64,000 bases of DNA from an uncultured Planctomycetales bacterium (GTDB lineage: Bacteria > Omnitrophota > Gorgyraeia > Zapsychrales > JANLHA01). This document shows positions 4,306 to 54,283 of this stretch, one piece after another. The stretch spans positions 82,553-146,552 of the forward strand of contig CAZAXH010000004.1 in the NCBI GenBank assembly GCA_964489065.1, given 5' to 3'. The notes below the pieces were generated by a model. That model was not told the origin of the DNA, ran no database searches, and worked only from the letters and a program-made list of their open reading frames with translations. Within the stretch, counting starts at the first letter, position 1, and every line of letters begins with the position of its first letter. Both the position numbers and the translations under genes were made by a program.

Positions 4306-4929
4306 TTAACGCTCCTCGGGTTGATCCAGGGTCACAAACACTTTGCGGCCTTTCACTTTCAAACGGCCCTCTTCAAACCAGGCGATCGCCTCCGGATAAA
4401 TTCTATGCTCCACCCGGTGTATTCTCTCCTCCAGGGTCTCCAACGTGTCCTCATCCTTAACCGGAACCGCCTGCTGAGCAATAATCGCCCCGTTATCAAT
4501 TTTTTCGTTCACAAAATGCACGGTCACGCCTGTCACCTTCACCCCGTACGTGAAGGCGTCTTTCAGCCCGGCGCTGCCCTTAAACGCGGGCAACAGGGCC
4601 GGATGGATATTCAGGATTTTCAGCGGGTATTGTTTGACAAAGAAAGGCGTTAAAAACCGCATATACCCGGCCAGAACGACAAAATCAATCCTTTCCTGTT
4701 TCAAATGAATGACGATGTCCCGGTCAACGCTCTGTTTGTTCGTATAATCCCGGACGTTAAACACCAGGCTGGGAATCCCGGCTTTTTCCGCCCTTTCCAG
4801 CGCGTAGGCTTTTTCCGTGCTGGAAACGACTAATGCCAAATGTGATTTGATCTGCCCTTTTTGACAGGCATCAATAATCGCCTGCAGGTTAGAACCGTTA
4901 CCGGACACAAACACCGCAAATCTTTTCAT
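4306..4929 (-). CDS. purN: phosphoribosylglycinamide formyltransferase
   Basis: The N-terminus MKRFAVFVSGNGSNLQAII and the core ...NIHPALLPAFKGSAGLKDAF... match the PurN formyltransferase fold. Length is 207 aa. Confidence 0.9.
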   Translation of the reverse strand: MKRFAVFVSGNGSNLQAIIDACQKGQIKSHLALVVSSTEKAYALERAEKAGIPSLVFNVRDYTNKQSVDRDIVIHLKQERIDFVVLAGYMRFLTPFFVKQYPLKILNIHPALLPAFKGSAGLKDAFTYGVKVTGVTVHFVNEKIDNGAIIAQQAVPVKDEDTLETLEERIHRVEHRIYPEAIAWFEEGRLKVKGRKVFVTLDQPEER

Positions 4930-5076: not shown

Positions 5077-6342
5077 CTAAAACAAGGAAATTCCAAGTCC
5101 TTTTTTGTATTTGAACAAGCCCAATAGCCCTAGCAGAGTGAAGGTCCCTCCCACGCCCACCAAAATCCAGGTTCGGTCCACATATTCCGACAACAACGAG
5201 CTGGACAGCATCGCCACCAGAAACGCGAAATGGATGATAATCTCCAGCGAGCTGAACACCTTCCCCAGCATATTTTCGTCTGAAACAAGCAACGCAATCG
5301 TGTTGGCCGCGATGAAAACCGGGCCGATTACAAGCCCCAGAAAGAACGCCAGCGCCGCTGCCACAAGCAGTTGCGGATAAACCCTCACCATCAAGACAAA
5401 CAGGATCATCATCATGCCGCCCGCGAACAGGCAACAAAAAATCGTCTTGTGCCAGGGGATTTTCTTGCCCCAGCGGCCGTAAGCCAACGCGCCGACAAAA
5501 AGCCCCGCCCCGAGAAAGACGGCGAGGACGCCGAGGTCCCGGGTCACGCTTTTAAAACACTCCTGGATAAAAACAATAATGACCACGTACACCGCCCCGG
5601 CCGCGGCCATCAGGGTGAACAAAAGGTTGATCACAAACCGGATGCCGGGGTTGCGGGTGAGATATCGCACCCCTTCCTTAAGCTCCCGGACCACAGAACG
5701 TTCCAGGGCCAGGACTTCCTGCCCGGCCTGGATAAATTCTTTCCGGTCAAAATGCAAACGAAGATCATGAGGGATAGAAATCACAAGAAGACCCGACACA
5801 AAAAAAGTGACCGCGTTCACCACGAACCCGCCCCGTGCGCCGGTCCAGAAAACCAGGAACCCCCCAAACGCGCACCCGAAGACAAACGCCAGCATGCCGG
5901 TTGTGGTCATAAGGGAATTCGCCATGACCAGGTGTTCTTTTTCGACCAGTTCCGGAATGATCGACATCTTCGCCGGCACATAAAACCGGCTGAAGCAAAA
6001 AACCAAAAAGACAATAATATAAATAGGGATCAACGATTTCCAGACGATAAAAATCATCGGAATCAGCATCACCAGGACGCCCCGAGCGATGTCACAGAGG
6101 AACAGTGTTTTACGGTTTTCCCAGCGGTCTACATAAACGCCGGCGATGGGGCCCACGATAAAAACCGGGATGATCGTGAATGACAGGAGTTTGGCCAAAT
6201 CCATTGTTGAACCGGGGCTGCGCTCAGCAATAAGCCCTATCAAAGCCATCTGATTAATGCGGTCGCCGAACTGGGAAATCAGCTGCGCCAGCCATAACCG
6301 CATAAAAGGATAATTTTTCCGGTCAAAAATAAATTTTAACAT
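5077..6342 (-). CDS. MFS transporter
   Basis: About 12 TM helices and an MFS-type N-terminus (NYPFMRLWLAQLISQFGD). The track start at 6402 lies inside repeat copy A, so the start is moved to the internal Met (MLKF) at 6342. Confidence 0.75.
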   Translation of the reverse strand: MLKFIFDRKNYPFMRLWLAQLISQFGDRINQMALIGLIAERSPGSTMDLAKLLSFTIIPVFIVGPIAGVYVDRWENRKTLFLCDIARGVLVMLIPMIFIVWKSLIPIYIIVFLVFCFSRFYVPAKMSIIPELVEKEHLVMANSLMTTTGMLAFVFGCAFGGFLVFWTGARGGFVVNAVTFFVSGLLVISIPHDLRLHFDRKEFIQAGQEVLALERSVVRELKEGVRYLTRNPGIRFVINLLFTLMAAAGAVYVVIIVFIQECFKSVTRDLGVLAVFLGAGLFVGALAYGRWGKKIPWHKTIFCCLFAGGMMMILFVLMVRVYPQLLVAAALAFFLGLVIGPVFIAANTIALLVSDENMLGKVFSSLEIIIHFAFLVAMLSSSLLSEYVDRTWILVGVGGTFTLLGLLGLFKYKKGLGISLF

Positions 6343-6344
6343 GA

Positions 6345-6496
6345 TATGAAGCACTACGTTCCTATTAACAATTTGCCTCGAGGAATGGGCTGACTTCTTC
6401 ATATGCGTGCAGACATCCCCGAAGCAGAAGACCTTGTTATCCTCCCGCAGTCACCCCCGGGACTACCCGGGGTCTTCTGCGAAGGCGGATAAACAC
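6345..6496 (+). repeat. intergenic element family, copy A (5' box, hairpin GCAGAAGACC...GGTCTTCTGC, 3' tail GAAGGCGGATAAAC)
   Basis: The copy contains tatgaagcactacg, then aacaatttgcctcgaggaatgggctgacttcttcatatgcgtgcagacatccccgaagcagaagacc, a nested CCCCGGG/CCCGGGG hairpin, and ggtcttctgcgaaggcggataaac. It aligns to copies B-F. Confidence 0.7.
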
Positions 6497-6589: not shown

Positions 6590-8383
6590 CTATTTTTCTA
6601 AAATATTTTTGTAAAGCGCATGCGCATGACTATAAATCACATCCCCGGTCTTTAAAAGCGGCAGCAGGCGCCCCAAGGCTTCTTTCGCCTCCAAAGGTTT
6701 GCCCTGCGCCACCAGGCTCGAGGCCCAGTTAAACAAAAAGTCGGGGTTCTCCGGTTCCAGCATGACCGCCCGCTCAAAATGAGCTACGGCCGTATCCAGG
6801 TCCGCGGTCTTGGAACAAATAATCCCAAGCGCGGCATGCGCCTGGGCGTCATTAAAGTCTTCCGTCAGCCGTTTTTCATACTGGTACCGCAGGGCTGTAT
6901 AGGTGGCCTGAACGTTCTTTTCCCACACGTGCCGCAAGCCGCCGGGATCGGTAATGCTCTCATATTGCCGCAGCCCCTCCCACAACCTGCCCTGGTCACA
7001 CAGGGCCTTACCAAGGGCGATACGCGCGTTGACCACATCAGGGGTTAATTCCAAAATCTGGCGGAACTCCCGTTCCGCGTCCGTCGGCTGCCCGTTGCGT
7101 GCGTAGACGTACGCAAGATTATACCGGACCCGCTGATTCCGGGGGTTCAGTTCCAGCGTGCGGCGGAACATTGCGATCTCGTTGCCGGAATAAATGTTCT
7201 GCTGAACTGTCATTAACATAAAATACCCCAGAAGGCCGATCAGCATGATCCTGAAAACCCGGTCCGAAACAAAACGCTTCCGCGCGCCCCAGCCGTAAAA
7301 ACCTTCCACCGCCAAGGCCGTCACCGCGAAAAACCCAATCGAGGCGGAGTACACAAAATGCTCGGCGAGAGAGATATAGCCGGCCTGCACGCCGATAGAA
7401 ACCAAAACCTGGGACACCGGCATCAGCTCGATCACAAACCAGGATATAAAAAACGCCCCCTCCGCCCGGATCCGCCGCCGGAACACGAAGAGGACAAGCA
7501 AGATCAGGCCATATACGCCCAGGGTCAGGCGGACCTCGGGGTCAGTAAACGCGACAAAAAGCCGCTGGGCCCGGTCGAACTGAAGATCAACCGGATGAAT
7601 AAAAATCCGGAAATAGGTCAACACGCCCCGCAAAAAACTTATAAACCCCAAGGCGGCTTCCTGCTGGCTCGGCCAGTAAAAAAGATGCGTAATGCCGAGG
7701 TGCTTACGTAAAAGCAGGTACAAGGCGTCAATCAGGAAAAACGGCAGCACCGGCTTTAAAACGCTGCGCCGGCCCTGCACCGGCATGCGTAAAAACCACC
7801 GGTACGCCAGCATCAAAAGAGGCGTGACGCCGGCCGACTCTTTGCTGAGCAGCCCCAACACCAGACACACGGCCGAAACAATATACGCGCTTTTGCGGAA
7901 TTCCCCCATGCAGAAAAAATGAAACGCGTTAATCGAAAAAAACGCGCTCAAAAGGATCGCCCGGCCCGGCACGTTTGAAACCGCCTCCCACTGCACAGGA
8001 TGAACCGCGAACAACATGGCCACCGCGAACGCGAAAAATTTACGACGGGTCATAAACATGATGGTTCCGAACACAGAGAGAGCGGTCAGGATATGCAAAA
8101 TAATATTGTCCAAGTAATAATAATAAGCGTTTAAGGCGTAAACATAATATTCCACCATAAAGCTGAACGTCACCAACGGCCTGTAATAAGAATTGCTCCC
8201 AAAGAAGGACGAAGAAAACACCTCCCTCAAATGGCTGAAACTGCGCAGGTTCATATTATTGACAATGCAATATTCGTCATCCATGGTTTTAAACTGCCCC
8301 TGTAGGGCAAAAGAATACACCACGAAGGTCATCAGGGCGATCACGCACTGCAACACGATGGTTTTTGACAAAAACGCTCTCAT
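6590..8383 (-). CDS. PMT/TMTC-like polytopic membrane protein with C-terminal TPR repeats (putative GT-C glycosyltransferase), paralog 1
   Basis: The N-terminal ~400 aa has about 10 TM helices and a DD/DE-type loop motif (MDDEYCIVNN) followed by YYRPL. The C-terminal ~200 aa are TPR repeats. The architecture matches DUF1736/PMT_2 + TPR (TMTC-like). Confidence 0.65.
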   Translation of the reverse strand: MRAFLSKTIVLQCVIALMTFVVYSFALQGQFKTMDDEYCIVNNMNLRSFSHLREVFSSSFFGSNSYYRPLVTFSFMVEYYVYALNAYYYYLDNIILHILTALSVFGTIMFMTRRKFFAFAVAMLFAVHPVQWEAVSNVPGRAILLSAFFSINAFHFFCMGEFRKSAYIVSAVCLVLGLLSKESAGVTPLLMLAYRWFLRMPVQGRRSVLKPVLPFFLIDALYLLLRKHLGITHLFYWPSQQEAALGFISFLRGVLTYFRIFIHPVDLQFDRAQRLFVAFTDPEVRLTLGVYGLILLVLFVFRRRIRAEGAFFISWFVIELMPVSQVLVSIGVQAGYISLAEHFVYSASIGFFAVTALAVEGFYGWGARKRFVSDRVFRIMLIGLLGYFMLMTVQQNIYSGNEIAMFRRTLELNPRNQRVRYNLAYVYARNGQPTDAEREFRQILELTPDVVNARIALGKALCDQGRLWEGLRQYESITDPGGLRHVWEKNVQATYTALRYQYEKRLTEDFNDAQAHAALGIICSKTADLDTAVAHFERAVMLEPENPDFLFNWASSLVAQGKPLEAKEALGRLLPLLKTGDVIYSHAHALYKNILEK

Positions 8384-10155
8384 GGATTTTCGCTCCTCTG
8401 TTGCACGAGACGGGACACATAGCGGACGTTGGTGTCGTCCCCGGCAAACCCTTCTACGGCCGTAAGCAGCCGCCGCGCTGCCGGGATATCTCCCAGTTCG
8501 AGATAGGCGTGAATCGCGTACACATAGGACAAAGACACAGTCGCGTCCAGTTGAATCGCGTTCAGAGCGGCGGACACCGCGCGAGGGTAATCGTTCTGCA
8601 AAATATACGCTTTGGCCAAATCGATATGCGCCGGCAGGAAATCCGGCCTTAGGCGGATGGTTTTCTCAAAATACCGGACCGCCTGGCCGGGGTCGCGCGC
8701 ACAACAGCGGCCCAGGTTATGCCAAAGCAGGAAGTTGTCATCCATCGCCGGGACGAACGGGTTGCGCGGGTCTTTCCGGGCGTATTCTTCAAAATAATAT
8801 TTCGCTTTATCGAATTGGGCCTGCTCGAAATAATTCAACCCCAGCACCCAGGCTGGCCGGGAACTGTCAGGATAGTTCCGGAGCATCTCCAGGCAGGCGG
8901 AAAAATTGTTCTTAAAAAAACTATTATTCCCGAATGTCGCCGCCATGCAAACTCCGATAAGCGCGGCCCTGAACATCAGCGCGGCGCGGGACGCGGGCCA
9001 ACGGGCCGCCAAAAACCGGGAAGCGCGTTCAACCCCCATGGCCAAAAGAAGAAACATGCCGACGGCCGGGAGATACATAAAGCGGAACGCAATCGGATTG
9101 GGCAGCCAGACGATATTGGAAACCGGCAAATACGCGATCACAAACCAGGCCACGGCAAAAAAGACCAGCGGCCGGCGCTTCTGGCCGCGCCATGCGGCCA
9201 CGACGCCAACGACGGCCAACACGGCCATCACCGCCAGCCCAAAACCGTCCCCAGGAGCCCAGCCCGGCGTATACAGGGGCGGCAGCACGGTCACAGCCAC
9301 GGGGAAAAGAAATACCTTTAAATATTCAAAAAAAATTTTTCCCGCGATCAGGCCGGAGGAAGCCAACCCCGTGCGGAAAAAAAGATATTTCGGATAATGC
9401 TGGCTGGGGCAAAGGACAAAATAAACAATCAGGTAGGCCAGTAAAATTAAAAAATACATCCGGTATTTTTTCTCCCTGGCCCGGACAAAGGCCCCCCATA
9501 ATTGGTTCTGCGGTTTAAAAATATATCCGTCATATAAAACCAAAAGCGGGATTAAAACCAGGGCGGTTTCTTTGGCGAAAAGCGCCAGCCCAAACGCCGT
9601 CAGAGATATTCCCAAAAATCTCCCGGAAGAAGGACAGGCGCATTCGGCGCGATAGTACGTTAAGAGGGCCGCCAGGATCAAAAGGGTCGACAGCAAATCG
9701 GACCGGTACCCGATGCAGCTCACGGCTTCCGACTGGATCGGATGGACACCGAACAGTAAAGCCGCCATAAACGCGAACGCCGGGTTGGGGCAAAGCGACC
9801 AGGCCAGCATAAAAACAAGCCCCACCACAACCAGATGAAACACAATATTGGTTAAATGATGCCCCGCGGGGTTGTCCCGGTAAAGCGCGTAATCTGCGAA
9901 AAACGTCAACGCCGTCACTGGGCGGTACGATATCAGCCCGGAATAAAAAGTCTCCTCCCCTTTCCAGTGGGGCTGGTATTGTTCCGGCGCCATCACCAGC
10001 TTCCTGCTGAATAAATACCTTAAATGGGCAGGATGTTTATAAAAAGAATTATTCCGGAAAATAGACAACGAATCCCCGATAAAACCATTATTCAAACAAT
10101 TCGAGAATGAGAGGAACGTCAGAGTGAAAAGAAGAATAATCGTGCGTTTTGTCAT
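8380..10155 (-). CDS. PMT/TMTC-like membrane protein with C-terminal TPR repeats, paralog 2 (tandem, 4-bp overlap with paralog 1)
   Basis: Architecture is the same as paralog 1: polytopic N-terminal domain (FIGDSLSIFRNN loop) and C-terminal TPR repeats. Its stop overlaps the start of the downstream paralog (ATGA-type overlap at 8380-8383). Confidence 0.65.
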   Translation of the reverse strand: MTKRTIILLFTLTFLSFSNCLNNGFIGDSLSIFRNNSFYKHPAHLRYLFSRKLVMAPEQYQPHWKGEETFYSGLISYRPVTALTFFADYALYRDNPAGHHLTNIVFHLVVVGLVFMLAWSLCPNPAFAFMAALLFGVHPIQSEAVSCIGYRSDLLSTLLILAALLTYYRAECACPSSGRFLGISLTAFGLALFAKETALVLIPLLVLYDGYIFKPQNQLWGAFVRAREKKYRMYFLILLAYLIVYFVLCPSQHYPKYLFFRTGLASSGLIAGKIFFEYLKVFLFPVAVTVLPPLYTPGWAPGDGFGLAVMAVLAVVGVVAAWRGQKRRPLVFFAVAWFVIAYLPVSNIVWLPNPIAFRFMYLPAVGMFLLLAMGVERASRFLAARWPASRAALMFRAALIGVCMAATFGNNSFFKNNFSACLEMLRNYPDSSRPAWVLGLNYFEQAQFDKAKYYFEEYARKDPRNPFVPAMDDNFLLWHNLGRCCARDPGQAVRYFEKTIRLRPDFLPAHIDLAKAYILQNDYPRAVSAALNAIQLDATVSLSYVYAIHAYLELGDIPAARRLLTAVEGFAGDDTNVRYVSRLVQQRSENP

Positions 10156-10374: not shown

Positions 10375-10662
10375 TCATCGCGGGACGTACGTGTTCTGCA
10401 GTTTCTTTTTATTATATGCGCTCGAGGCGCCCTGGACGCACCCAACGACCACCCCAAGCAATATCCACACAGCTGTTATCCCGATGCAAATTTTACCCCA
10501 GAGGATAAATTTTTTACCGATCGGGCTTAAAACCCCGAATTCATCCTTATTATTTTTTCCGGCAAAAATGAAAATGACACCGCATATCAACAGGACAACT
10601 TCCATAAAATCGGCTCCCGGATTTCTTCCCCCGCCCCCCTCATGGGTCGGACATCCTGCCAA
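10375..10662 (-). CDS. small hypothetical membrane protein (95 aa)
   Basis: Two predicted TM helices; no similarity recognised; weak support. Confidence 0.3.
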   Translation of the reverse strand: MAGCPTHEGGGGRNPGADFMEVVLLICGVIFIFAGKNNKDEFGVLSPIGKKFILWGKICIGITAVWILLGVVVGCVQGASSAYNKKKLQNTYVPR

Positions 10663-10691: not shown

Positions 10692-10765
10692 AGCCGACGA
10701 GAGGAGTTGAACCTCCGACCCACGGTTTACGAAACCGTTGCTCTACCGGGCTGAGCTACGTCGGC
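10692..10765 (-). tRNA. tRNA-Thr (anticodon CGU)
   Basis: The minus-strand sequence GCCGACGTAGCTCAGCCCGGTAGAGCAACGGTTTCGTAAACCGTGGGTCGGAGGTTCAACTCCTCTCGTCGGCT folds as a cloverleaf. Acceptor 7 bp, D stem GCTC/GAGC, anticodon stem ACGGT/ACCGT with loop TTCGTAA, T-loop TTCAACT. CCA is not encoded. Confidence 0.85.
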
Positions 10766-13114: not shown

Positions 13115-14476
13115 TTAAAAACGCACTTCCGTATAAAGAGAAACCTGGTTCGTGGGCTTCCCTGATTTAAAGGCTTTTTCCAAATAACCTCTTGGCCAAA
13201 ACCGGGCACCGACCAGCTGAAACGAAACATTTTTATTTAATTCATATTTTATATACGCATTGGCCTCTGTTGCTTTTCCTTTTTCCCCGGATATGGCCGT
13301 AACACAATCAAGCAGCGCATACCGCGTCCCGACCGTTATTTTGTCTTCCGTTGTTATGCCATACTCTTTATAAATCTTATTCTCCATCTGTTCGCCTTTT
13401 CCGCCAAAGCCATACTCCACGCCGACAAAAGGAATCTTGACGTTGACGACATCTTCGGCGTACGAATCATTTAAAACCTCGTAGGTAATATAGGCCATGG
13501 AGTAAAAACAGTCCCGGCCGATACGCCGGAAATTCTCATCCTTCCCAGGGCTGGCTAGCTTATCTCCGGAAACATAAACGTAACCCGCATTCAAATCAAT
13601 GGCCTTGTCCTCCTCTAATTTAATGGAGTAGTCGCCCTTTAACCTGGCCAGCCAACCCGTGTAATCTTTATTGGCGATATCGTCTTCCCCGGCATTAACT
13701 CCCAGGAGAAAAGCATACGCCAGGTTATCGATAAACGTTTTTCCATCACCTTTTAATGTCCAAAGGACAAGGTTAGACTTTTCGCCCAGGGTGTCATCCA
13801 AGCGCTTGCGGTAATAAGTTCCCATCCTAAAATTATGGCCTTCAAAAATCTCGTCGGTCTGGGCCTCAAGACCATAAATAAGTTCGTCATAATTTCCTTC
13901 CATGGCGATCCCGGTCCCCATCTTAGCCCGCTGCCCAAAAAAAGTGCTCCAGTTAATCTTAGCCCAATTCTTGTCCACCTTTACGGCATCAATGGCCGTC
14001 AATTCCAGAAAACGTCCGGAATGAGGTCCGTAATAGAAGAAGGCGTCCTCACTTTCCCCCATATATTGCCTTCCAAGAGTGACGCTAAAACCCTGCCAAA
14101 AATCTGTAAGCTGTAGATAGAGATTCGCCACAACCGGATCAGCCGACTCGGGGGCGTCTTCTAATTCGCTTGTATGATAAGTTTTCCGGTAATGCTGCCA
14201 ATTCTGCCAGTAGCCAAGCTCGCTCCTTAAAAGCAGGTTTTCCGTTATCTTGGAGTCCAAAGCAACCAAGGCCCTTGTTATAATGGCCCCGTCGTCGCCC
14301 CCCTTCCCGCGGTAATTAGTCATATACGTTGCCATCGTCATGATGTCACCGCTCACTTCAATCCTTTCTTCCAAATCTTGCAAAAAGTCTGCGTTGGCGA
14401 CTCCTGCCGTGGACACCATAAATCCAACAAATGTCAACACGCAAAAAAATTTTCCCGGGCTTTTCTCCATAACCAT
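13115..14476 (-). CDS. outer-membrane beta-barrel (porin-like) protein
   Basis: Signal peptide ...FMVSTAGVANA; alternating amphipathic beta-strand pattern; C-terminal ...YTEVRF with terminal Phe typical of OMP beta-barrels. Confidence 0.5.
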   Translation of the reverse strand: MVMEKSPGKFFCVLTFVGFMVSTAGVANADFLQDLEERIEVSGDIMTMATYMTNYRGKGGDDGAIITRALVALDSKITENLLLRSELGYWQNWQHYRKTYHTSELEDAPESADPVVANLYLQLTDFWQGFSVTLGRQYMGESEDAFFYYGPHSGRFLELTAIDAVKVDKNWAKINWSTFFGQRAKMGTGIAMEGNYDELIYGLEAQTDEIFEGHNFRMGTYYRKRLDDTLGEKSNLVLWTLKGDGKTFIDNLAYAFLLGVNAGEDDIANKDYTGWLARLKGDYSIKLEEDKAIDLNAGYVYVSGDKLASPGKDENFRRIGRDCFYSMAYITYEVLNDSYAEDVVNVKIPFVGVEYGFGGKGEQMENKIYKEYGITTEDKITVGTRYALLDCVTAISGEKGKATEANAYIKYELNKNVSFQLVGARFWPRGYLEKAFKSGKPTNQVSLYTEVRF

Positions 14477-16971: not shown

Positions 16972-19128
16972 TCACTCAGCCCAGTCTTTCCGCTGGAATT
17001 TTAAGACCGGCAGAAAATTGGAATATTGGTCCGTCCAGGGGCGCACCGGATCGCCAGACTGAAAAGACACGGGCTCCCATCGCAACACTTCCGTCAATTT
17101 ACGGAAACACGCCTCATCCCAAGTCACCGCCGCCCATTTAGAGAAAAACGTACCCTTCCCTTCCCCCTGGCCCTCCTGAAACGCAACCCGCGCCCCCAAA
17201 TTCACGGCTTCGACCGCCACAATCCTCCGGATATCAGCAAAATGATTCGAGAGGTGAAACAATAACACCCCTTCCGGTTTAAGGTGCGCCCGGTATTCCT
17301 GAAGGGCTTCCAGAGTCATAAGATGAACCGGCACGGAATCGCCGCTGAAGGTGTCGACGATCATGCAATCATACTGTTTGCCCCCGCTGTTCCGAAGTTC
17401 AATCCGGGCGTCCCCAACGACATGACGGATCTCCGCCCCGGAGCCAGACAGGAAGGAAAAATATGTTCGGGCAAGCCGGATGATCTCCGGATCCAACTCA
17501 TAAGAATCCACGCGCTGCCCTGCGCGGAAATAACTCATCACCGACCCCACTCCCAGCCCCAGGCTCGCGATATCATCGAAATGAAATTCCGGGGACTGTA
17601 GCACCCGGCCGACCGGCGAGTTCAGAGCATAATACGCCAGCGGGATATGGGCGCGGTTATCCAGATAGCGGACACCGTGAATGGTCGAGCCGTGCATAAA
17701 AAACCGAAACCCGGACGGCTTGTCATAAATACGGCTGATCCCGTAATAATTGCGCCCTTTGTACACATATTGTCCGCCGGCTAAAGGTTCCAACAACGCG
17801 AAAAAACTTAAAAACACCACCCCTGCTACCTTATAAACTTTCAATGAATGAAAGGCCTCATCCAGCAAAACCTGAAACAACCCTGCGACCACCAGCCATT
17901 CCACCCAGCCGCCCTGAGGAAAAAGAATATAAAGAACGATCGCGGTTAAAACAGCCAGCGCCGCGTGGGAAATCCGAAACAGGTTCTTTTCCCTGGTCAC
18001 CTGCCAAGCCAAAAGACTCACATAAATACCCATAAGGTATTCGACAAAAGAAACCGAGACAACCGGAATCATCCACGTGACCACCATGCCGCCGCAAAAG
18101 CCACCCAGGGAAAAAATAAAATAATAATACGACAGCTGCCGGGAGCCCGGCGGCCGGATATCATACACCTGCCCCTGAATAAACATGCACAGATAAAACA
18201 AGACAGCCAAAAACGCCCCCAGCCCAAACAAAACCGGTAAGACCGTCAGGTTGTAAGTGAAATATAACAAAACACTCACGCCTATCATGCCGAACGGCCG
18301 ATGGGTGATCCATGCCGGACGCCAGGGCCGCTTTTTAAAAACCAAAGCAAAAGAAAGCAGATACAACGCTAACGGAAGAATCCACAAAAGCGGGATCGGC
18401 AGAATTTCCGACGTCAGGATATTCGTGACGGATAAAAGAAGCATGACCCCAGCGGCGCCATAAAGGAACCAACCCCACGCACGGCGGGGGCCGGCCCAAG
18501 AATCCCCCTCCTTCAAACCCTGTTCATAAACCGCCGTGACCGGCACCTGCCGGGCGGCCACCAGCAGCAACCCCAGAAACAATAAATAAAATCCCCGCCA
18601 CCAGGCCTGCTGCTGCGGCAAGGTAAAGAAATATTCAAAGAAAACCGGATACGTCAGCAAACCCGAAAAAGAGCCCCAATTGGACGTCGCAAACAGCTGA
18701 TAAGGGTCGTCCCGCTCCGCCAGGCTGCTTTGCGACAGCCAGGCCTGAAAAAAAACGCTGGACGTGGACAACAAAAAAAACACCAGGCCGATTGACCAGA
18801 ACAACTGCCAAAAAATACCCAAGACCAGCGGCCAAGATGTAAGTCCGGCGGACAGGCCGATGTCTCTTCCCGGGAAAAAAAACAGCGGCAGCACAAACAG
18901 GGCCAGGTGGACATAAAGGTATCTTTTGAGATCAACGGCCCGCAGGATAATATGCATGTAAGAGTATCCGGCCAGAAGCACGACCTGAAAAAAAACCACG
19001 CATGCGCCCCAGACAAGGTATCCGCCGCCGTAATAAGGCATGATCATCTTGCCGATAATAAGTTCAATTTGAAACAACAGGAAGGAAGCAAGAAACAAAG
19101 CCGCTTTCAGCAGATAAATTTTTTTCAT
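16972..19128 (-). CDS. fused MFS-like membrane domain / spermidine-synthase-like (PABS) protein
   Basis: The N-terminal ~450 aa are polytopic. The C-terminal ~250 aa form an aminopropyltransferase-like fold (GLGVGS, YDCMIVDTFSGDSVP, LKPEGVLL). The architecture is that of the 'fused MFS/spermidine synthase' proteins. Confidence 0.7.
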   Translation of the reverse strand: MKKIYLLKAALFLASFLLFQIELIIGKMIMPYYGGGYLVWGACVVFFQVVLLAGYSYMHIILRAVDLKRYLYVHLALFVLPLFFFPGRDIGLSAGLTSWPLVLGIFWQLFWSIGLVFFLLSTSSVFFQAWLSQSSLAERDDPYQLFATSNWGSFSGLLTYPVFFEYFFTLPQQQAWWRGFYLLFLGLLLVAARQVPVTAVYEQGLKEGDSWAGPRRAWGWFLYGAAGVMLLLSVTNILTSEILPIPLLWILPLALYLLSFALVFKKRPWRPAWITHRPFGMIGVSVLLYFTYNLTVLPVLFGLGAFLAVLFYLCMFIQGQVYDIRPPGSRQLSYYYFIFSLGGFCGGMVVTWMIPVVSVSFVEYLMGIYVSLLAWQVTREKNLFRISHAALAVLTAIVLYILFPQGGWVEWLVVAGLFQVLLDEAFHSLKVYKVAGVVFLSFFALLEPLAGGQYVYKGRNYYGISRIYDKPSGFRFFMHGSTIHGVRYLDNRAHIPLAYYALNSPVGRVLQSPEFHFDDIASLGLGVGSVMSYFRAGQRVDSYELDPEIIRLARTYFSFLSGSGAEIRHVVGDARIELRNSGGKQYDCMIVDTFSGDSVPVHLMTLEALQEYRAHLKPEGVLLFHLSNHFADIRRIVAVEAVNLGARVAFQEGQGEGKGTFFSKWAAVTWDEACFRKLTEVLRWEPVSFQSGDPVRPWTDQYSNFLPVLKFQRKDWAE

Positions 19129-20071: not shown

Positions 20072-22102
20072 TTACGGTTTTAACGCCTCCGCCTGCGTGA
20101 TCAGGTCCTTAAAGCGCGGATCGTCCGGAGCCCGGTGTTGCCCCTCCTGCCAGGTTGCGATGGCGCGGGTGAAGTCATCCCTGTTGCCATAAAATTTTCC
20201 AAGCTCCACATAAGCGGCCGGATAATCCGGGTCCTTTTCCAGGGCTTTCTGGAAAAAAGACAACGCGGCCGGAGCCGCCCCAGCGGCCGCGAAGCGGCTG
20301 CCCAGAGCGGTCAACCTCCCCGCATCCGTACCCTCCGCCAGTACCCGCTGCGCCGCTTCCAGCGCCGACGGCTGCAATCCCGCCTCCAGATACAACTCCG
20401 TTAAATTATACAGGCTTTCTTCCTCATGCGGATCATATTTAAGAATATTCTGATATATTTCAATCGCGCGAAGATGCTCGCCCTGTTGCTGATACACCAA
20501 CGCCAGATTGCGGCGGGCTTCCAGCAACGCCGGATTCAGGGATTGGACTTTCAGAAAAACCTCCTGCGCCTGCTGCAGCTGCCCCGTCCGTAGATATAAC
20601 ACGCCCAGGTTGCTCCAGGTTTCGGCATATTCAGGATTCACGCCCAGGGCCTTTTCAAAATAATCCCGGGCCTCAAGGACGTTCCCCTCTTCCAGGAAAA
20701 TAAGGCCGAGATTATTCAATGTTTTATAACTCCGGGGATCCAGCCGGATAGCGTGATACAACATCTGTTTGGCGGCCCGGTAGTTCCCCACCCCCATATA
20801 CGCCGCGGCCAGATTATCATAAGGCCGCACTTTACGGGGAGATTTGCGGAGCACGTCCGTCCAGAGCGTCACCGGATTCTTCCACACGGCATTTCTCTGA
20901 TAAGTCAAAATGCCAAGCCCCGCCAGCCAAACCCCTATCACCACATAAAAAAACACACGGTTTTTAAACAGGGCCTGGAATCCTGACACGGCGAAAAGCG
21001 CAAAGCCGGTCAAAGCCAGATAAAGCCAATGCTCAAAAATCATATCCTTCCCCAGCAAAGCGCTTGACAGGAATTCCATCATCAGGCTGACAAGGAACCA
21101 AATAACGCAAAAGCTGAAAACCCGCCGCCGGTTAAACTGCCGGCACGCCCAGGCCGCCAGCCCCACGATCAGGATGATGGACAGAAGCGTCTGCCCTTCC
21201 CACACGCTTTGCGCCCGGGGGAAATCGTAATCCAAATTCTGCCGCACAGGCGCCAGGCATAACCAAAAATACGTTCTCAAAGCGTTCAAAGCCGTCAACC
21301 CGTTATTGACATGGAACCGGCCTGTGGCAAGCTGTTCCCGCAGGTCAACGATAGAAGATGACCGCTCCGCCAGCAGGCTAAAAGGGATAATAAACCAGGT
21401 CAAAAAAAACGGGGACAGCCGTTTCAGGCCCCCCAGGAGGCTCTCGTAGGAGCGGCGGATAAAAAACACGTGGATAATAAAAAGCATCAACGGCAGCGTA
21501 AAGGCGAGCTCTTTGGAAAACATCGCCAGAACCGCCGCGGCCAGGGAGGCGATATAATAATCCCGGTGGGCGGCACCGGCCCATTTGAGATAAAAAACAA
21601 TAGAAAGCAAATAAAAAAACACGGCTAAAAGCACGGCCCTTTGGGAAATATAATTGACCGCCTGGGTCTGCAAAGGATGTGCCAGGAAAACCAAAGCGGT
21701 CAACACGGCGGTGACCGCCGGCGCGCCGGCGTCAGCGGCGGAACGGCTTTCAAAAAACGGTGTCTGTAAAAGCTTCCTCACAAACACGAAGACCAAAAAC
21801 GCGTTCATAAAATGAAGCAGCAGATTGACCACATGATACCCGAAAACATCAAGTCCGCCGAACCGGTAGTTAAGCGCAAAGCTTAAACCCGTTACAAACC
21901 GGGTGTTGAAACTCGCCCATAGCGCCGGCCAATTCCAGAGAGAACGAACGGCGGGATTATGAATAATAAAGATATCGTCATCCAGGTGAAAAGTATTGTG
22001 GAGTGAGTTAGCATAAATCGTCCCGCCCAAAAGGACGATCAGGACAAAGGCGGCAACCCGGGCCCGGTCGGTAAATAACGACATTTTCTCTTGATTTTGC
22101 AT
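20072..22102 (-). CDS. PMT/TMTC-like membrane protein with C-terminal TPR repeats, paralog 3
   Basis: Polytopic N-terminal domain with HLDDDIFIIHNPAV loop motif; C-terminal ~250 aa TPR repeats. The start is trimmed to MQNQEK (GGAG 9 nt upstream) because 22125-22222 is a repeat remnant. Confidence 0.65.
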   Translation of the reverse strand: MQNQEKMSLFTDRARVAAFVLIVLLGGTIYANSLHNTFHLDDDIFIIHNPAVRSLWNWPALWASFNTRFVTGLSFALNYRFGGLDVFGYHVVNLLLHFMNAFLVFVFVRKLLQTPFFESRSAADAGAPAVTAVLTALVFLAHPLQTQAVNYISQRAVLLAVFFYLLSIVFYLKWAGAAHRDYYIASLAAAVLAMFSKELAFTLPLMLFIIHVFFIRRSYESLLGGLKRLSPFFLTWFIIPFSLLAERSSSIVDLREQLATGRFHVNNGLTALNALRTYFWLCLAPVRQNLDYDFPRAQSVWEGQTLLSIILIVGLAAWACRQFNRRRVFSFCVIWFLVSLMMEFLSSALLGKDMIFEHWLYLALTGFALFAVSGFQALFKNRVFFYVVIGVWLAGLGILTYQRNAVWKNPVTLWTDVLRKSPRKVRPYDNLAAAYMGVGNYRAAKQMLYHAIRLDPRSYKTLNNLGLIFLEEGNVLEARDYFEKALGVNPEYAETWSNLGVLYLRTGQLQQAQEVFLKVQSLNPALLEARRNLALVYQQQGEHLRAIEIYQNILKYDPHEEESLYNLTELYLEAGLQPSALEAAQRVLAEGTDAGRLTALGSRFAAAGAAPAALSFFQKALEKDPDYPAAYVELGKFYGNRDDFTRAIATWQEGQHRAPDDPRFKDLITQAEALKP

Positions 22103-22124
22103 CAGCGGGAATTCTCCGGTCAAC

Positions 22125-22262
22125 AAAAAAGCATGAACCCCAAAGCAAGCCCTAGACCCAATGAACCGCAGCAACCTGCGGGGTATTACACACACATCCT
22201 TCGACCCGTTCGCCTGGCTCACTAATATTTTTCTCAGAGCCGGCGGCCTCTTCCCCCGGTCT
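22125..22262 (+). repeat. degenerate copy (G) of the intergenic element (promoter-proximal module plus decayed core)
   Basis: tgaaccccaaagcaagccctagacccaatgaaccgcagcaacctgcgggg is followed by catccttcgacc...ggtcttgggtgtattctaatggataagacggc. The first part aligns to copy E at 62803-62860. Confidence 0.4.
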
Positions 22263-49180: not shown

Positions 49181-51130
49181 ATGGATTTATTGAAAGGAAT
49201 GCACATGAAGCCCCCGATAAGGACAACAATCCGGCAGGCGCTGCTATCAGGGAAAGGGACAGGGCTTTTACTCGCCGCCATAACTTTCCTGATTTATTTC
49301 CATGCCTTTCCCAACGGATTCTTACTGGATGATTACAATTTTGTGGAACAAGAATATCAGGAAATATTTAAAACTCCGCAGGATTTCTTCGTGCACATTC
49401 CGCCCCGAACGCATCATTACGCCCCCCTTTATTACTGGACAAACACCGTCCTCTTTCGTCACTTTCAAGCTTATCCATATAGGATGCGCTTTATCCTGTG
49501 GATGGCGTTTCTCGCGAACGTGCTTTTTTTCTTTCAATCCATCCATCTCCTCCTGAAGGACCAAAAAACGGCTTTTCTCTGCGCGGCCTTGTTCGCTATC
49601 CATCCCATTCACGCATTCTATATTCATATGCCCAGCGGCGGTTTTGTGTTCTTCTACACGCTATGCCTGCAAGCGAGTCTGTTCTGGATGTGGAAATATC
49701 TGTCCGGCGCCGCAAGAAATACGGGCCTCTATCTCGCAAGCCTCTTATGCTTCCTGGCCGGGCTTCTCTTCTTTGAGGCCGCCGCCCTCTACCCCCTGTA
49801 TCTTTTGATTTTCATGAGATTTATCAGCACAGAGCGTTGGGGGGTTCACCTCAAACGCGCCCTGCCGTTTTTTACTCTTTCTCTAATCGACGTGTTTCTC
49901 TGGAGCTGGATATGCCGGGGAGAATCCGGTTTTCCGCAAAGAATCCTCCTGCTCGGCCTTTCTGTCCCCCGCTATACAGCGTCTGTAACGCGCCTGATAT
50001 TCTGGTATATGTCGCGGCTGCTCTATCCGGAAGGGCTCGTATTTATTTATAATATGCCCCCGGCACAACAAGAAATCTGGCTCTGGAACGGGCTCGCCGG
50101 ACTTCTATTGTTCTTATTCGTTCTTCTCATGAAACGGCGGCCTAAAGATATAAAAACCCTGGCGCTGGCCTGGTTTCTTACCGGCTGTCTCTTTGTCTTT
50201 CCCGCCAGTTTGACGCATGCTTATATGGGCATGGTGATCGAAACCCATTGGATATATTTCTCAAGCATAGGCCTGTTTCTTCTTTTAACTCTGGGCCTTA
50301 TCCGGGTTCTGAAAAAAATTCGGCCTGGTTTTCAATACGCTTGTTTAGGATTGACCGCGATCTATTTCATGGCCTGGACGCAGACCTATCATGTCATGGC
50401 GCGGTCAGAAAAAACTTACTGTGAATACTGGCTGAAAGTTTGCCCGGCGAACCTTATCCCCTTGATCAATTTATCCAAAATCTACGCCGAAGAAGGCCAG
50501 TTGACCCGGGCCACGGATTACGCCCGGCGCGCATTCCTGCTCGGCCGCGATTGTGTCCCCGCGACCTATGAAAACCTGGCTATGGTCTTAACTTTCAAAG
50601 GGGATGACGCGCAAGCGGAGGACGTCATCACCCGGGCCGCCGGCAAAGGATTCACGTCGCCTTGTTTACTCAACACCCTCGGCGTTATTCACCGCCGTCA
50701 AGGGAACAGCCTCACCGCGGAGCAGGATTTTCTCACCGCCATTAAGCAGGCACCGCGGTACGTTTTGCCCAGGTTAAATTTGGCCAAACTCTATAGTTCC
50801 TCCGGGCGGGAAAAGGAAGCCGTCCGCTGTTATGAAACCGCCCTGTCGCTCCAGCCTGATAAAAAACAAATCTTTCATATTCAACGCCATCTCATGGTGC
50901 TGTATTTAAAACAGAATGCCCCCGACCGATATCACGGGCTTGTCCAGAAGGCGCTGACCCAAAATCCTGTCCAGCGGACATACCTCCGATTAAGCCGTAC
51001 TCTTGAAACATATCATTACTGGCGTGAAGCCCAAGCCTTGTTAAACCAGGCCCAGGAACATTACCCGGAAGATGCTTCCTTACAACAATATTACCGGGAT
51101 TTTATGAAAAGATATGACGCCGCCCGGTGA
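49181..51130 (+). CDS. PMT/TMTC-like membrane protein with C-terminal TPR repeats, paralog 4
   Basis: Polytopic N-terminal domain with FLLDDYNFVEQEY loop motif; C-terminal TPR repeats. Only + strand member of the family here. The exact start is uncertain (Met at 49181 or 49193). Confidence 0.65.
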   Translation: MDLLKGMHMKPPIRTTIRQALLSGKGTGLLLAAITFLIYFHAFPNGFLLDDYNFVEQEYQEIFKTPQDFFVHIPPRTHHYAPLYYWTNTVLFRHFQAYPYRMRFILWMAFLANVLFFFQSIHLLLKDQKTAFLCAALFAIHPIHAFYIHMPSGGFVFFYTLCLQASLFWMWKYLSGAARNTGLYLASLLCFLAGLLFFEAAALYPLYLLIFMRFISTERWGVHLKRALPFFTLSLIDVFLWSWICRGESGFPQRILLLGLSVPRYTASVTRLIFWYMSRLLYPEGLVFIYNMPPAQQEIWLWNGLAGLLLFLFVLLMKRRPKDIKTLALAWFLTGCLFVFPASLTHAYMGMVIETHWIYFSSIGLFLLLTLGLIRVLKKIRPGFQYACLGLTAIYFMAWTQTYHVMARSEKTYCEYWLKVCPANLIPLINLSKIYAEEGQLTRATDYARRAFLLGRDCVPATYENLAMVLTFKGDDAQAEDVITRAAGKGFTSPCLLNTLGVIHRRQGNSLTAEQDFLTAIKQAPRYVLPRLNLAKLYSSSGREKEAVRCYETALSLQPDKKQIFHIQRHLMVLYLKQNAPDRYHGLVQKALTQNPVQRTYLRLSRTLETYHYWREAQALLNQAQEHYPEDASLQQYYRDFMKRYDAAR

Positions 51131-51236: not shown

Positions 51237-51698
51237 TTATCCTTCCAGCACCAATAACTGATCTTTCGCCGCCTTAGCCGGAGCCCAGAACCACGGCCCG
51301 TTCGGGTCCCAACACTGGCCATACGTGAATTCCTCGACCAACATCTTAAACGCCGCCTTGGCGTCCTCTTCCCGGCCCAGCTCAAGCAAGGCTTTGCCTT
51401 TGATAAACAAACTTGTCGCCACATCATTCAGCGCCCAATAATTCGTGTGAATCTCTTCCGTGGCTCCGGCGGGATAGTCCTTCAGAGTCGCCTGCATCTG
51501 CCGCGCCTGGTCCGCATAAAGTTCGATACATTTATCTGTATAGACAACCGCTCCCTCGTAATCCTTACCGTTGAGGGCGCCCCAGGCTTTCACCGTGAGG
51601 GTGGATGATTTGTAGTCCCCGAAATCCAGCGCCCGCGCGACCGTCGAGGCGGCAAGCAGGCTCCCCGCAACCGTCAAAATAATTAAATACCGTTTCAT
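51237..51698 (-). CDS. hypothetical secreted protein
   Basis: Signal peptide MKRYLIILTVAGSLLAASTVARA; ~130-aa helical/TPR-like soluble domain; no family recognised. The start is trimmed to MKRYL. Confidence 0.4.
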   Translation of the reverse strand: MKRYLIILTVAGSLLAASTVARALDFGDYKSSTLTVKAWGALNGKDYEGAVVYTDKCIELYADQARQMQATLKDYPAGATEEIHTNYWALNDVATSLFIKGKALLELGREEDAKAAFKMLVEEFTYGQCWDPNGPWFWAPAKAAKDQLLVLEG

Positions 51699-51763
51699 GA
51701 TACGCCCCTTTCCTTTCATGGTTTTTTGTTGTTTCTGCCCTTCCCAAACAGGGCCCATCGCCT

Positions 51764-53005
51764 CTAAAGCTCTCCGGCGAATTTTTCCTTGATCACCTCA
51801 TAAGCCGCCCGGGGTCGCAGGATGTCCAACTGGCCTGGAACCGGATTGGGCTCCAAAGCCATCACCCCGTACCACTCTTGATTCATATAACCGTCCGGCC
51901 CCGCGTGAGCTCCCGGCGTATACCCGCAGTCATGCGTGACGGCCGACGGAGCCCACTCCCCCTCATCTTTCCACCATCCGTCGGCGTACTGGAACACCAC
52001 CCCGCCTATATTCGGGCCGCCATGAGCCGCGTTATAACCCAAAATCGTGTCCCAACAACCGGCGATATACCTGGCCTGCATGTCCGGACGCTCTTTACCA
52101 TTCTCCGGATGATCCGCTCCAAGAACAAACCACGCGTCCGTGCCGAATTCCGTTATCAAGACCGGCTTAGCGGACCGCTTCTGGTACTGCAGAAAAAAAT
52201 TGTTTGTCTTAGATCCGAAATCTTCCCCACGATACACGTTGCATCCATGGATATCCACGTCGGGTAAGACGTCATCCGTCGCATGGATCCCAATGTCACC
52301 CAAGTCCGCGGAAACCATCATCACCGGGTGAAAAGAATCTCCTTCCACTGCCTTAATTTTCCTAGCCAGCGTATTTATAAATTTATAAAAAGCGGCCGCC
52401 TGATCCTCCCTCCGGCAGGATTCGTCCGCGCCTTTGTAAGTACAGAAAGCCATTTCGTTCTCGTTGGCGATGCCCCACATTAAGATCGCCGGGTCATCCT
52501 TGAATTCCGCGACATAGTCCAGGATGTCCTTTTCCAAGGAAGACAGATCGCCGTTCACATAATCCGACTGATGCGGAATCCAGTAACCGGCAATGACCTT
52601 TAACCCCTGTTCGTTAGCTTTCTTAAGAAGAGCCGGGGTAACCTTTCCCCATGTCCGGATCGTGTTGGCATTCATGCCTTTGATCAAAGGCAGGTCCTGG
52701 TCTAAGAGAAGAGGATTCTCATACTCCTGCTCCCCCGGGCAATCAAATTGCGGCTGCCCGTCCGTGGTGCCGCGGTACCAGCATAAGCCGTACTGGGAGG
52801 GGAACGACCCGATCGGCGTGTTAGAATACCCCATCCCTTTCACCAGAAACGGCTCATACCGGCCGTCCCGGTCAAAATCCGTCAATAACTGCCGCCCTTC
52901 GACTTTGACATAAGGATACGCCCAACAGGAAGAAACCTCTGATAAGAAAAAACCCACAATCGCCCCAACCACTATTCCGTATTGAATCCCTGTCCTTTTC
53001 ATCAT
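51764..53005 (-). CDS. secreted clan GH-A TIM-barrel glycoside hydrolase/transglycosylase, GH72-like (short paralog)
   Basis: Signal peptide; FLVKGMGYS...QDLPLIKGMNANTIRTWGKV...GLKVIAGY...AILMWGIANENE (acid/base NE)...KPVLITEFGTDAW (nucleophile TExG). Order and spacing parallel fungal Gas1/Gel (FYIRGVAYQ...RDIPYLKKLNTNVIRVY...FFAGNEV...FFSEYGC). Confidence 0.55.
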   Translation of the reverse strand: MMKRTGIQYGIVVGAIVGFFLSEVSSCWAYPYVKVEGRQLLTDFDRDGRYEPFLVKGMGYSNTPIGSFPSQYGLCWYRGTTDGQPQFDCPGEQEYENPLLLDQDLPLIKGMNANTIRTWGKVTPALLKKANEQGLKVIAGYWIPHQSDYVNGDLSSLEKDILDYVAEFKDDPAILMWGIANENEMAFCTYKGADESCRREDQAAAFYKFINTLARKIKAVEGDSFHPVMMVSADLGDIGIHATDDVLPDVDIHGCNVYRGEDFGSKTNNFFLQYQKRSAKPVLITEFGTDAWFVLGADHPENGKERPDMQARYIAGCWDTILGYNAAHGGPNIGGVVFQYADGWWKDEGEWAPSAVTHDCGYTPGAHAGPDGYMNQEWYGVMALEPNPVPGQLDILRPRAAYEVIKEKFAGEL

Positions 53006-53239: not shown

Positions 53240-54283
53240 TTAGAAATTATACTCAATCCTCGATTGCGGTATCCAAGTGTGCCATTCCGCCTCCAACTGC
53301 CGGAGCCCACCCGGATAATAACGCTCGATTGCCCGGTGTCCAGGAAAATTTTTATGATGAAATCGCCTGAGTTCGTGGATCAGCCCGGCAAACGCGGCCC
53401 GGCCTTTTTCCGTCGACAATAAAAACGTTACCAAAGACCAGGATATAATGCTCATCGGGCCATTCGCCTGTTCGTTACGTTGCCGCCACTGCTCGTCCGT
53501 CAAACGGAGGAAATCTTCGAGGGGCATAAGCACTCCGGCCTGCAGCCATTTTTTCATCCGTTGGTCCTTATGCGTCTGCGGCCGCACAACCACAGAATCC
53601 GCCTCCAGAGTGCCGTACGCAAAAAACTCCGCCAGCCCCTCCTCGATCCAGGGTGGGCATCGGGAAATTTGCCGGCGCAAAATAGCGCGGCTGGCTTCGT
53701 GATAAAGGATACGCAGCATGTTGCGTTCATTTTCGTTTTTCCAAAGGACCATTTCTTTCTTTTCCAAGGAATAAAAGCCGGCGTCCGACCGGGAGGCCGA
53801 GTCCTGCCCCAGATAGGATTGATACGCACCGAAATCCCCGAAGATACGGGTTTTAAACATGCGTTCCCGGTTAAAGTCCAGGCCAAACACATCTTCAAAA
53901 ACAATGAACATTTTGGAAATCACACACACGATTTCCTCCCGCACCTCGGGCGAAAGAGTGTGCCCTTCGGAAAGGATCTCCACATCAACCGGCGTAAACG
54001 GCCTGCCTGGGCTTCCCGGCTGGGGAACACGCGGTGGATAGGGGGCCCGCGTCCCGACTTTCGTGACTACAGGGGTCTCCGTTTCGATCTTCTGAATAAG
54101 GCGTTTCTGCAGGGAAAAAATCCTCCGGTCGGTTTTGATCTTCAAGGCGTCATCCGTTTCTTCCACAATCGTTCCTTCCACAATTTTTCCGGACCGCAAG
54201 TAAAACGTGTCTCCGACCGCCAGGGCCGGCTGCCCCAGGAGCGCCGTCCACACAATGCCCGCTATAAGGCAATGTCTTTTCAT
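53240..54283 (-). CDS. secreted DUF1570-like protein (possible peptidase-like fold, HEXXH not intact)
   Basis: Signal peptide; N-terminal beta-rich segment (FYLRSGKIVEGTIVEE); central ...LRILYHEASRAILRRQ..; C-terminal helical region. The family assignment is tentative. Confidence 0.4.
   Translation of the reverse strand: MKRHCLIAGIVWTALLGQPALAVGDTFYLRSGKIVEGTIVEETDDALKIKTDRRIFSLQKRLIQKIETETPVVTKVGTRAPYPPRVPQPGSPGRPFTPVDVEILSEGHTLSPEVREEIVCVISKMFIVFEDVFGLDFNRERMFKTRIFGDFGAYQSYLGQDSASRSDAGFYSLEKKEMVLWKNENERNMLRILYHEASRAILRRQISRCPPWIEEGLAEFFAYGTLEADSVVVRPQTHKDQRMKKWLQAGVLMPLEDFLRLTDEQWRQRNEQANGPMSIISWSLVTFLLSTEKGRAAFAGLIHELRRFHHKNFPGHRAIERYYPGGLRQLEAEWHTWIPQSRIEYNF

Follow-up and report, generated by a model that had tools for sequence, protein, structure and literature searches.

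The window analyzed here, a 64,000-nucleotide stretch of contig CAZAXH010000004.1, carries two adjacent minus-strand genes, which we call U (the upstream member, 8380 to 10155, 591 amino acids) and D (the downstream member, 6590 to 8383, 597 amino acids). According to our analysis, each encodes a membrane domain of the glycosyltransferase C (GT-C) type, similar to that of the eukaryotic TMTC proteins, followed by a C-terminal tetratricopeptide repeat (TPR) domain. Both open reading frames (ORFs), reported in a preliminary description of this DNA, are present at these positions, and the 4-bp overlap that it placed at 8380 to 8383 reads ATGA on the coding strand, where the TGA stop codon of U meets the ATG start codon of D. 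The sequence also contains, inside the end of U and 9 nucleotides before the ATG of D, a GAGGAG Shine-Dalgarno sequence for D (8393 to 8398, minus strand). As judged from these signals, U and D belong to one transcription unit and are translationally coupled through the ATGA overlap. The two proteins are paralogous over their full length (25% identity over 577 amino acids, E = 2e-19 by BLASTP). Since their membrane domains are just 26% identical, the pair goes back to an old duplication and is not a recent tandem copy.

In U, the membrane domain comprises residues 1 to 414 (8914 to 10155), as delimited by the helix map of the structural model, hydropathy, and hhalign alignment to the TMTC/DUF1736 set, while residues 415 to 591 and the stop codon (8380 to 8913) make up the TPR domain. 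In D, by model helices, hydropathy, and hhalign, the membrane domain covers residues 1 to 400 (7184 to 8383) and the TPR domain residues 401 to 597 and the stop codon (6590 to 7183; Pfam TPR_17 at 8e-16, TPR_2 at 5e-15, and others). The C-terminal TPR domains of the preliminary description are confirmed: the last 180 to 200 residues of U and D each match many TPR families of Pfam, with E values down to 1e-16, and hold about five repeats. Its multispanning N-terminal part also holds, although the number of transmembrane (TM) segments, given as about 10, is corrected to 11 in both proteins by model helices and a hydropathy scan. Under the positive-inside rule, the short Lys/Arg-rich loops after TM2, TM4, TM6, TM8, and TM10 predict a cytoplasmic N terminus and a periplasmic TPR domain. 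All conserved polar motifs then sit in predicted periplasmic loops, namely, an Asp and YRP in extracytoplasmic loop 1 (EL1), an Arg in EL2, Lys-Glu in EL3, and the motifs of EL4 and EL5. The same 11-TM topology has been deduced for the TMTCs (PMC7801869), and reporter fusions for loop 1 and the C-terminal domain lend it partial support in the Pseudomonas aeruginosa pilin glycosyltransferase TfpW.

Scans of the whole proteins against Pfam and NCBIfam, and of the membrane domains alone against Pfam at E ≤ 10, gave TPR-type matches only. Neither protein matched PF13231 (PMT_2), PF02366 (PMT), or PF08409 (TMTC_DUF1736), even with the membrane domains alone at this threshold, and neither matched DUF2723 or any other Pfam GT-C family. 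The beta-trefoil MIR domain had no match in U or D either, and their soluble part is the all-helical C-terminal TPR domain. Single-sequence searches of the PDB sequences returned TPR matches only, and a profile of the membrane domains matched no solved structure among the PDB sequences. One PDB match of seemingly similar architecture, PA4667, was rejected because it is LbcA, a soluble TPR lipoprotein. The check for PMT_2 and DUF1736 matches proposed in the preliminary description was therefore negative for both proteins; at face value this is half of what that description had named as speaking against its own reading, and for this reason the fold was tested directly. The model of U matched the GT-C enzymes ALG12 (19.5), AglB (18.6), Pmt4 (18.1), STT3B (17.9), Pmt2 (16.2), and ArnT (16.1), with TPR domains interleaved among them, and the same GT-C enzymes were matched by the model of D. 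On these models, the GT-C fold of U and D can be regarded as established.

Sequence comparison leads more specifically to TMTC. We built a profile of 25 membrane domains (those of D, U, relatives of both, and two other paralogues in the window) and aligned it by hhalign to a TMTC3/DUF1736 profile; the two matched with probability 100 and an E value of 9.3e-66 over 383 columns, i.e., the whole domain. In a search of 5.8 billion sequences, the membrane domain of U reached a spider TMTC3 (fragment P0189) directly with an E value of 2.6e-17, and D aligned to the same fragment by BLASTP with 27% identity over 374 residues (E = 1e-21). By these measures, the homology of U and D to the TMTC (GT105) membrane domain is real, though they have diverged from it. 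The earlier GT-C/TMTC-like reading is hence upheld by fold and profile evidence, but its Pfam prediction failed. PF08409 is found in all human TMTCs with E values below 1e-30, in the TM7-TM8 loop (PMC7801869); EL4 of U and D, about 57 residues long as read from the model helices, seems not to reach the length of the DUF1736 loop of TMTC (74 residues). Relatives of the pair do match GT-C families: in 84 members of the U family, Pfam finds PMT_2 in 21, PMT in 6, and TMTC_DUF1736 in 4, and the precomputed annotation of many D homologues includes PMT_2 (PF13231).

Seven motifs have been defined for the TMTCs (PMC7801869), and we determined their conservation in 98 D-family sequences, 27 close U orthologues, and the 84 U-family members. 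All coordinates in this paragraph refer to the minus strand. The motifs that the preliminary description had quoted are present: D35-D36 in MDDEYCIVNN and YYRP at residues 66 to 69 of D, and D28 in FIGDSLSIF and YRP at residues 77 to 79 of U. D35-D36 (8276 to 8281) correspond to M1 (DD) in EL1 and are invariant (98/98), so that the claim of an acidic DD/DE loop motif holds for D. For U it holds in part: D28, conserved in 82/84, aligns to the first Asp of the DD, but in D28-S29 (10069 to 10074) a Ser stands in place of the second acidic residue. Position 29 is Asp in 68 of the 84 U-family members, and among the 27 close orthologues it is Asp in 15 and Ser, Thr, or Ala, the states seen in the clade of the window, in 11. 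The first EL1 Asp does not vary between D, U, and the two further window paralogues. Of M2 (SHKSYRP), only the (S/Y)YRP core remains, as SYYRP in D (Y66-Y67-R68-P69, 8177 to 8188; R68 and P69 98/98) and ISYRP in U, and the His-Lys proposed as a donor contact is absent from both. M3 (RxD) in EL2 is kept by U as R151-S-D153 (9697 to 9705), with Arg in 27/27, Ser in 26/27, and Asp at position 153 in all orthologue rows printed; D has R141-A-I143, with Arg in 98/98 and the Asp absent in 98/98. M4 (KE(T/Q)xxT) in EL3 is present in both proteins, as K181-E182 in D (7838 to 7843, 98/98) and K195-E196-T197 in U (9565 to 9573, Lys and Glu 27/27), the trailing Thr not being conserved. In EL4, D holds P264-VDLQF-D270-R271 (7571 to 7594; P264 and D270 98/98, R271 96/98), in which D270 aligns to the Asp of M5 (DW) and an Arg stands where M5 has Trp; this register was confirmed by BLASTP and hhalign to TMTC3. 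U has Leu291-Pro292 at M5, and the Asp is absent in 27/27. Finally, M7 (ERxxY) in EL5 reads E341-H342-F-V-Y345 in D (7349 to 7363), where an invariant His replaces the Arg (H342 and Y345 98/98, E341 86/98), and F357-R358-F-M-Y361 in U (9073 to 9087), where the Arg is kept and the Glu lost (R358 and Y361 27/27, with Phe or Tyr at 357). The HP motif is conserved in both D and U.

Neither protein thus holds the full TMTC motif set, and catalytic competence is not guaranteed by the motifs: D is without the M3 Asp and has His for the M7 Arg, and U is without the M5 Asp, the M7 Glu, and, in its clade, the second M1 Asp. One or both could be dead pseudo-enzymes that have kept the GT-C fold just to anchor a periplasmic TPR scaffold in the membrane or to bind lipid for it. 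Besides the incomplete motif sets, which in U extend to the EL4 Asp modelled as a metal ligand in TMTC, this explanation can draw on the lack of Pfam GT-C matches and on a fourth paralogue of the window (49181 to 51130), which has lost still more of the conserved residues. We nevertheless consider it very unlikely, in view of what has been kept. The EL1 Asp, YRP, HP, and KE are invariant in 98 (D) and 27 (U) diverged sequences, as are D270 and H342 in D and R151 and R358 in U, with D153 conserved in the printed rows; invariance of this kind is what purifying selection leaves at an active site. Both proteins also retain the first EL1 Asp, which is common to all GT-C enzymes of the homology search in PMC7801869. 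The deviations are reciprocal and strictly conserved, which argues for two functional yet different active sites and not for decay, and suggests two distinct specificities rather than redundancy.

On balance, we favour the reading that U and D are lipid-phosphate-sugar-dependent periplasmic glycosyltransferases, two anciently diverged TMTC-like GT-C paralogues that probably act on proteins. From the homology with TMTC, PMT, and ArnT, the most likely reaction of each is the transfer of one sugar from a polyprenyl (undecaprenyl) monophosphate-sugar donor on the periplasmic side of the membrane, for which the EL1 Asp (D35 of D, D28 of U) would serve as the catalytic residue. The TPR domain would present the acceptor that receives this sugar, with Ser/Thr of exported proteins as the most plausible candidate. 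Several observations weigh against this reading, namely, the negative Pfam results for the GT-C families, the failure of the membrane-domain profile to reach a solved structure, and the motif losses in both proteins. To these we add that the 64-kb window contains no detectable gene for a polyprenyl-phosphate sugar synthase, a flippase, a pilin, or a candidate substrate, and that no close bacterial relative with a characterized function was found in the literature searched. The preliminary description calls the bacterial homologues essentially uncharacterized; TfpW, a bacterial protein that shares the architecture, is characterized.

The conservation of the gene pair was followed by scanning species-representative genomes with the D alignment, which gave 73 loci whose neighbours were classified by family hidden Markov models. 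All 73 are in metagenome-assembled genomes (MAGs) of Omnitrophota, and homologues of both membrane domains are overwhelmingly from Candidatus Omnitrophota. Many MAGs with this Omnitrophota-type locus (L007, L008, L012 to L015, and others) are labelled "uncultured Planctomycetales bacterium"; this label is probably coarse or outdated taxonomy. Among the 53 loci with enough flanking sequence, the gene directly upstream of D is of the U type in 17, a D-like paralogue in 2, and unrelated to GT-C/TPR genes in 34. The 4-nucleotide overlap, in the form NTGA, is preserved at 13 to 14 of the 17 U-D junctions, down to about 40% identity, and close U orthologues always adjoin D.

These junctions bear on the proposal of the preliminary description that U and D form a heterodimer like the eukaryotic PMT1/PMT2 complex. 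In an obligate U-D heterodimer of the yeast Pmt1-Pmt2 type, translational coupling would lead to 1:1 stoichiometry, and the subunits would complement each other's lost residues or functions. The ATGA overlap with its internal Shine-Dalgarno sequence, the retention of NTGA across Omnitrophota, the constant place of close U orthologues beside D, and the fixed, reciprocal deviations (the M3 Asp and M7 Arg missing from D, the M5 Asp and M7 Glu from U) are all in line with this. However, in most loci D has no U beside it, and its motif states are invariant with or without U, so that D can do without U in most of the phylum; in addition, both proteins retain the Asp at the catalytic position and the KE, and more distant U-like proteins are found without D in other contexts. 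We therefore deem an obligate heterodimer unlikely, and the proposal is left unproven and weakened, at least from the side of D.

Directly downstream of D lies a gene for a major facilitator superfamily (MFS) transporter (5077 to 6402, minus strand; Pfam MFS_1 at 2e-27 and MFS_3 at 6e-16), whose true start may be internal. An MFS gene occupies this position in 61 of 69 loci, overlapping or within 30 nucleotides in 28 of the 61, and purN usually comes next, sometimes overlapping. From these neighbour counts, the phylum-wide unit is D-MFS-PurN, to which U is a clade-specific, tightly coupled addition. In the window, purN closes the block (4306 to 4929, minus strand) and encodes a glycinamide ribonucleotide (GAR) transformylase, which scores 254 bits against the cutoff of 150 of the NCBIfam PurN equivalog and matches GAR transformylases of the PDB at 2e-54. 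An ArnA-like sugar formyltransferase at this place would have tied the block to an Arn-like pathway; we considered this identity for the linked gene and rejected it in favour of a bona fide PurN. Since the formyltransferase is a genuine PurN, tight linkage within the block is no proof of shared function, and the inference drawn from the linkage of D to the MFS gene is weakened accordingly. The MFS protein matches NCBIfam TIGR00900 at 1e-58, below the cutoff, and has LplT-type matches too; it had no match among the PDB sequences. It is a DHA3-like transporter that also bears a secondary similarity to lysophospholipid transporters of the LplT type, and a lipid-carrier role is thereby suggested.

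Taking up this similarity, one could propose for one Omnitrophota clade that U and D act as a two-site heteromeric periplasmic glycosyltransferase with reciprocally specialized sites, supplied with its lipid carrier, or relieved of it, by the LplT-like MFS protein. The site of D would consist of the DD, the EL4 Asp, and the EL5 Glu-His, that of U of the D-S, the EL2 RxD, and the EL5 Arg, and the transporter would flip the polyprenyl-phosphate sugar or return polyprenyl phosphate. We regard this elaboration as a long shot, and we know of no MFS protein in such a lipid-carrier role for a GT-C enzyme.

On the other side of the pair, a 76-amino-acid hydrophobic ORF, probably encoding a membrane protein, lies directly upstream of U (10375 to 10605, minus strand) and is kept at the same position, with 73 to 94% identity, in the closest relatives L004, L005, and L006. 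A tRNA-Thr gene (anticodon CGU; 10692 to 10765) is found on the same strand, just upstream of this ORF and U. The window as a whole is ordinary diderm chromosomal DNA, with genes for FtsH, SecA, Lnt, an LpxL-like acyltransferase, MurJ, LptE, BamD, LeuRS, UvrC, and others. Four large ORFs in it, all on the minus strand, have no Pfam match at E ≤ 1e-3: 13115 to 14476 (453 amino acids), 16972 to 19128 (718 amino acids), 54280 to 56262 (660 amino acids), and 56332 to 58029 (565 amino acids).

The two further GT-C/TPR paralogues of the window bring their number to four and, taken as the longest ORFs, extend from 20072 to 22222 (minus strand, 716 amino acids) and from 49181 to 51130 (plus strand, 649 amino acids). 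The former has D-like motif states (DD, R-A-V, KE, the EL4 Asp, and E-H-x-x-Y). The latter keeps the DD, HP, and the EL3 Glu and has lost the equivalents of R68, R141, K181, and D270; from these losses, it may be inactive or of different chemistry. Directly downstream of it, and convergent with it, are genes for a small TPR protein and a GH2-like TIM-barrel glycoside hydrolase (51237 to 53005, minus strand). Beyond the window, an exhaustive search with the membrane domain of D retrieved 45,496 representatives of 50% identity clusters at E ≤ 1e-3, 11,245 at E ≤ 1e-10, and 213 at E ≤ 1e-30. By these counts, the superfamily is huge and the group of D orthologues in it small.

Among the distant U-like proteins, one (L078, 5001 to 6770) has a 4-nucleotide overlap with ExbD and is encoded downstream of ExbB, near PilO and secretin genes. 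At L079 (3556 to 6518), another is coupled through a 4-nucleotide overlap to a further PMT_2-like gene, and N_methyl (pseudopilin) genes surround them. These contexts hint at pilin-type substrates, as for TfpW. They are also relevant to the question whether the acceptor of U and D could be an envelope lipid or glycan instead of a protein, in the manner of ArnT, which acts on lipid A, or of the arabinosyl- and mannosyltransferases AftA and PimE, with the TPR domain serving as a scaffold to machinery of the envelope, a role known for TPR domains from exopolysaccharide export. Such an acceptor seems doubtful to us, since not only do distant relatives occur among pseudopilin genes, but the closest relatives with known function, TMTC1 to TMTC4, and the architecture-matched TfpW all act on proteins. 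Moreover, TMTC, TMEM260, and OGT recognize their protein substrates through the TPR domain (PMC10214176).

U and D add two members to a bacterial branch that is very large and has hardly been studied; they are not a new kind of system. Bacterial TMTC-like GT-C/TPR proteins mostly carry just the annotation "tetratricopeptide repeat protein". Apart from the TfpW-type enzymes, the literature searched yielded none whose donor, acceptor, or phenotype is known; it notes distant prokaryotic homologues of the TMTC and TMEM260 families and says nothing beyond this. With two fixed active-site variants coexpressed from overlapping genes in an uncultivated phylum, the locus offers a concrete pair on which bacterial TMTC-type periplasmic protein O-glycosylation can be tested, and it would also help explain the roles of the TMTC motifs.

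When U and D are set beside the known systems, the PMT/POMT enzymes (GT39, including Pmt1-Pmt2 and actinobacterial Pmt) and ArnT (GT83) are their structural relatives. Unlike PMT/POMT, U and D carry a C-terminal TPR domain instead of MIR and have no PMT or PMT_2 match, and in contrast to the PMT heterodimer, D occurs mostly without U. ArnT, the undecaprenyl-phosphate 4-amino-4-deoxy-L-arabinose (Und-P-L-Ara4N):lipid A transferase, differs in its 13 TM segments, its small periplasmic domain, its lack of TPRs, and its lipid A acceptor; no arn-type donor-synthesis genes were found near U and D, the adjacent formyltransferase being a true PurN. The cyanobacterial pilin-modifying "Ogt" was rejected as a relative because it is a soluble, unrelated GT41 enzyme. 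TMEM260, the eukaryotic O-mannosyltransferase for IPT domains, resembles U and D in that an 11-TM GT-C module is followed by a C-terminal lumenal domain that contains TPRs; its EL1 has an Asp where PMT1 has D77, and bacteria are noted to have distant homologues of it. However, it is a DUF2723 protein, whereas U and D have no DUF2723 match and their sequence relationship goes to TMTC.

The closest family by sequence is that of TMTC1 to TMTC4 (CAZy GT105), the eukaryotic protein O-mannosyltransferases of the endoplasmic reticulum that act on cadherins and protocadherins. U and D share with them a membrane domain homologous along its whole length, 11 TM segments with the N terminus inside and a noncytoplasmic C-terminal TPR domain, and, among the motifs, the EL1 Asp(-Asp), YRP, HP, KE, and xxxxY in EL5. 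They differ in being bacterial inner membrane proteins with a periplasmic TPR domain of only about five repeats, in giving no DUF1736 match, and in having M2, M3, M5, and M7 each incomplete in one or the other protein; their donor would be a bacterial polyprenyl phosphate sugar and not dolichyl-phosphate mannose (Dol-P-Man). The closest bacterial system by architecture and biology, as compared by its description, is TfpW, the pilin D-arabinofuranosyl transferase of group IV P. aeruginosa, which O-glycosylates a protein from a lipid-linked sugar and whose best structural template is ArnT. TfpW acts alone and its gene is directly downstream of pilA, whereas U and D are a coupled pair flanked by the small membrane ORF and tRNA-Thr upstream and by the MFS gene and purN downstream. 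In architecture, U and D agree with TfpW as described, which has 11 TM segments, an essential DDX motif in periplasmic loop 1, and a periplasmic C-terminal TPR domain.

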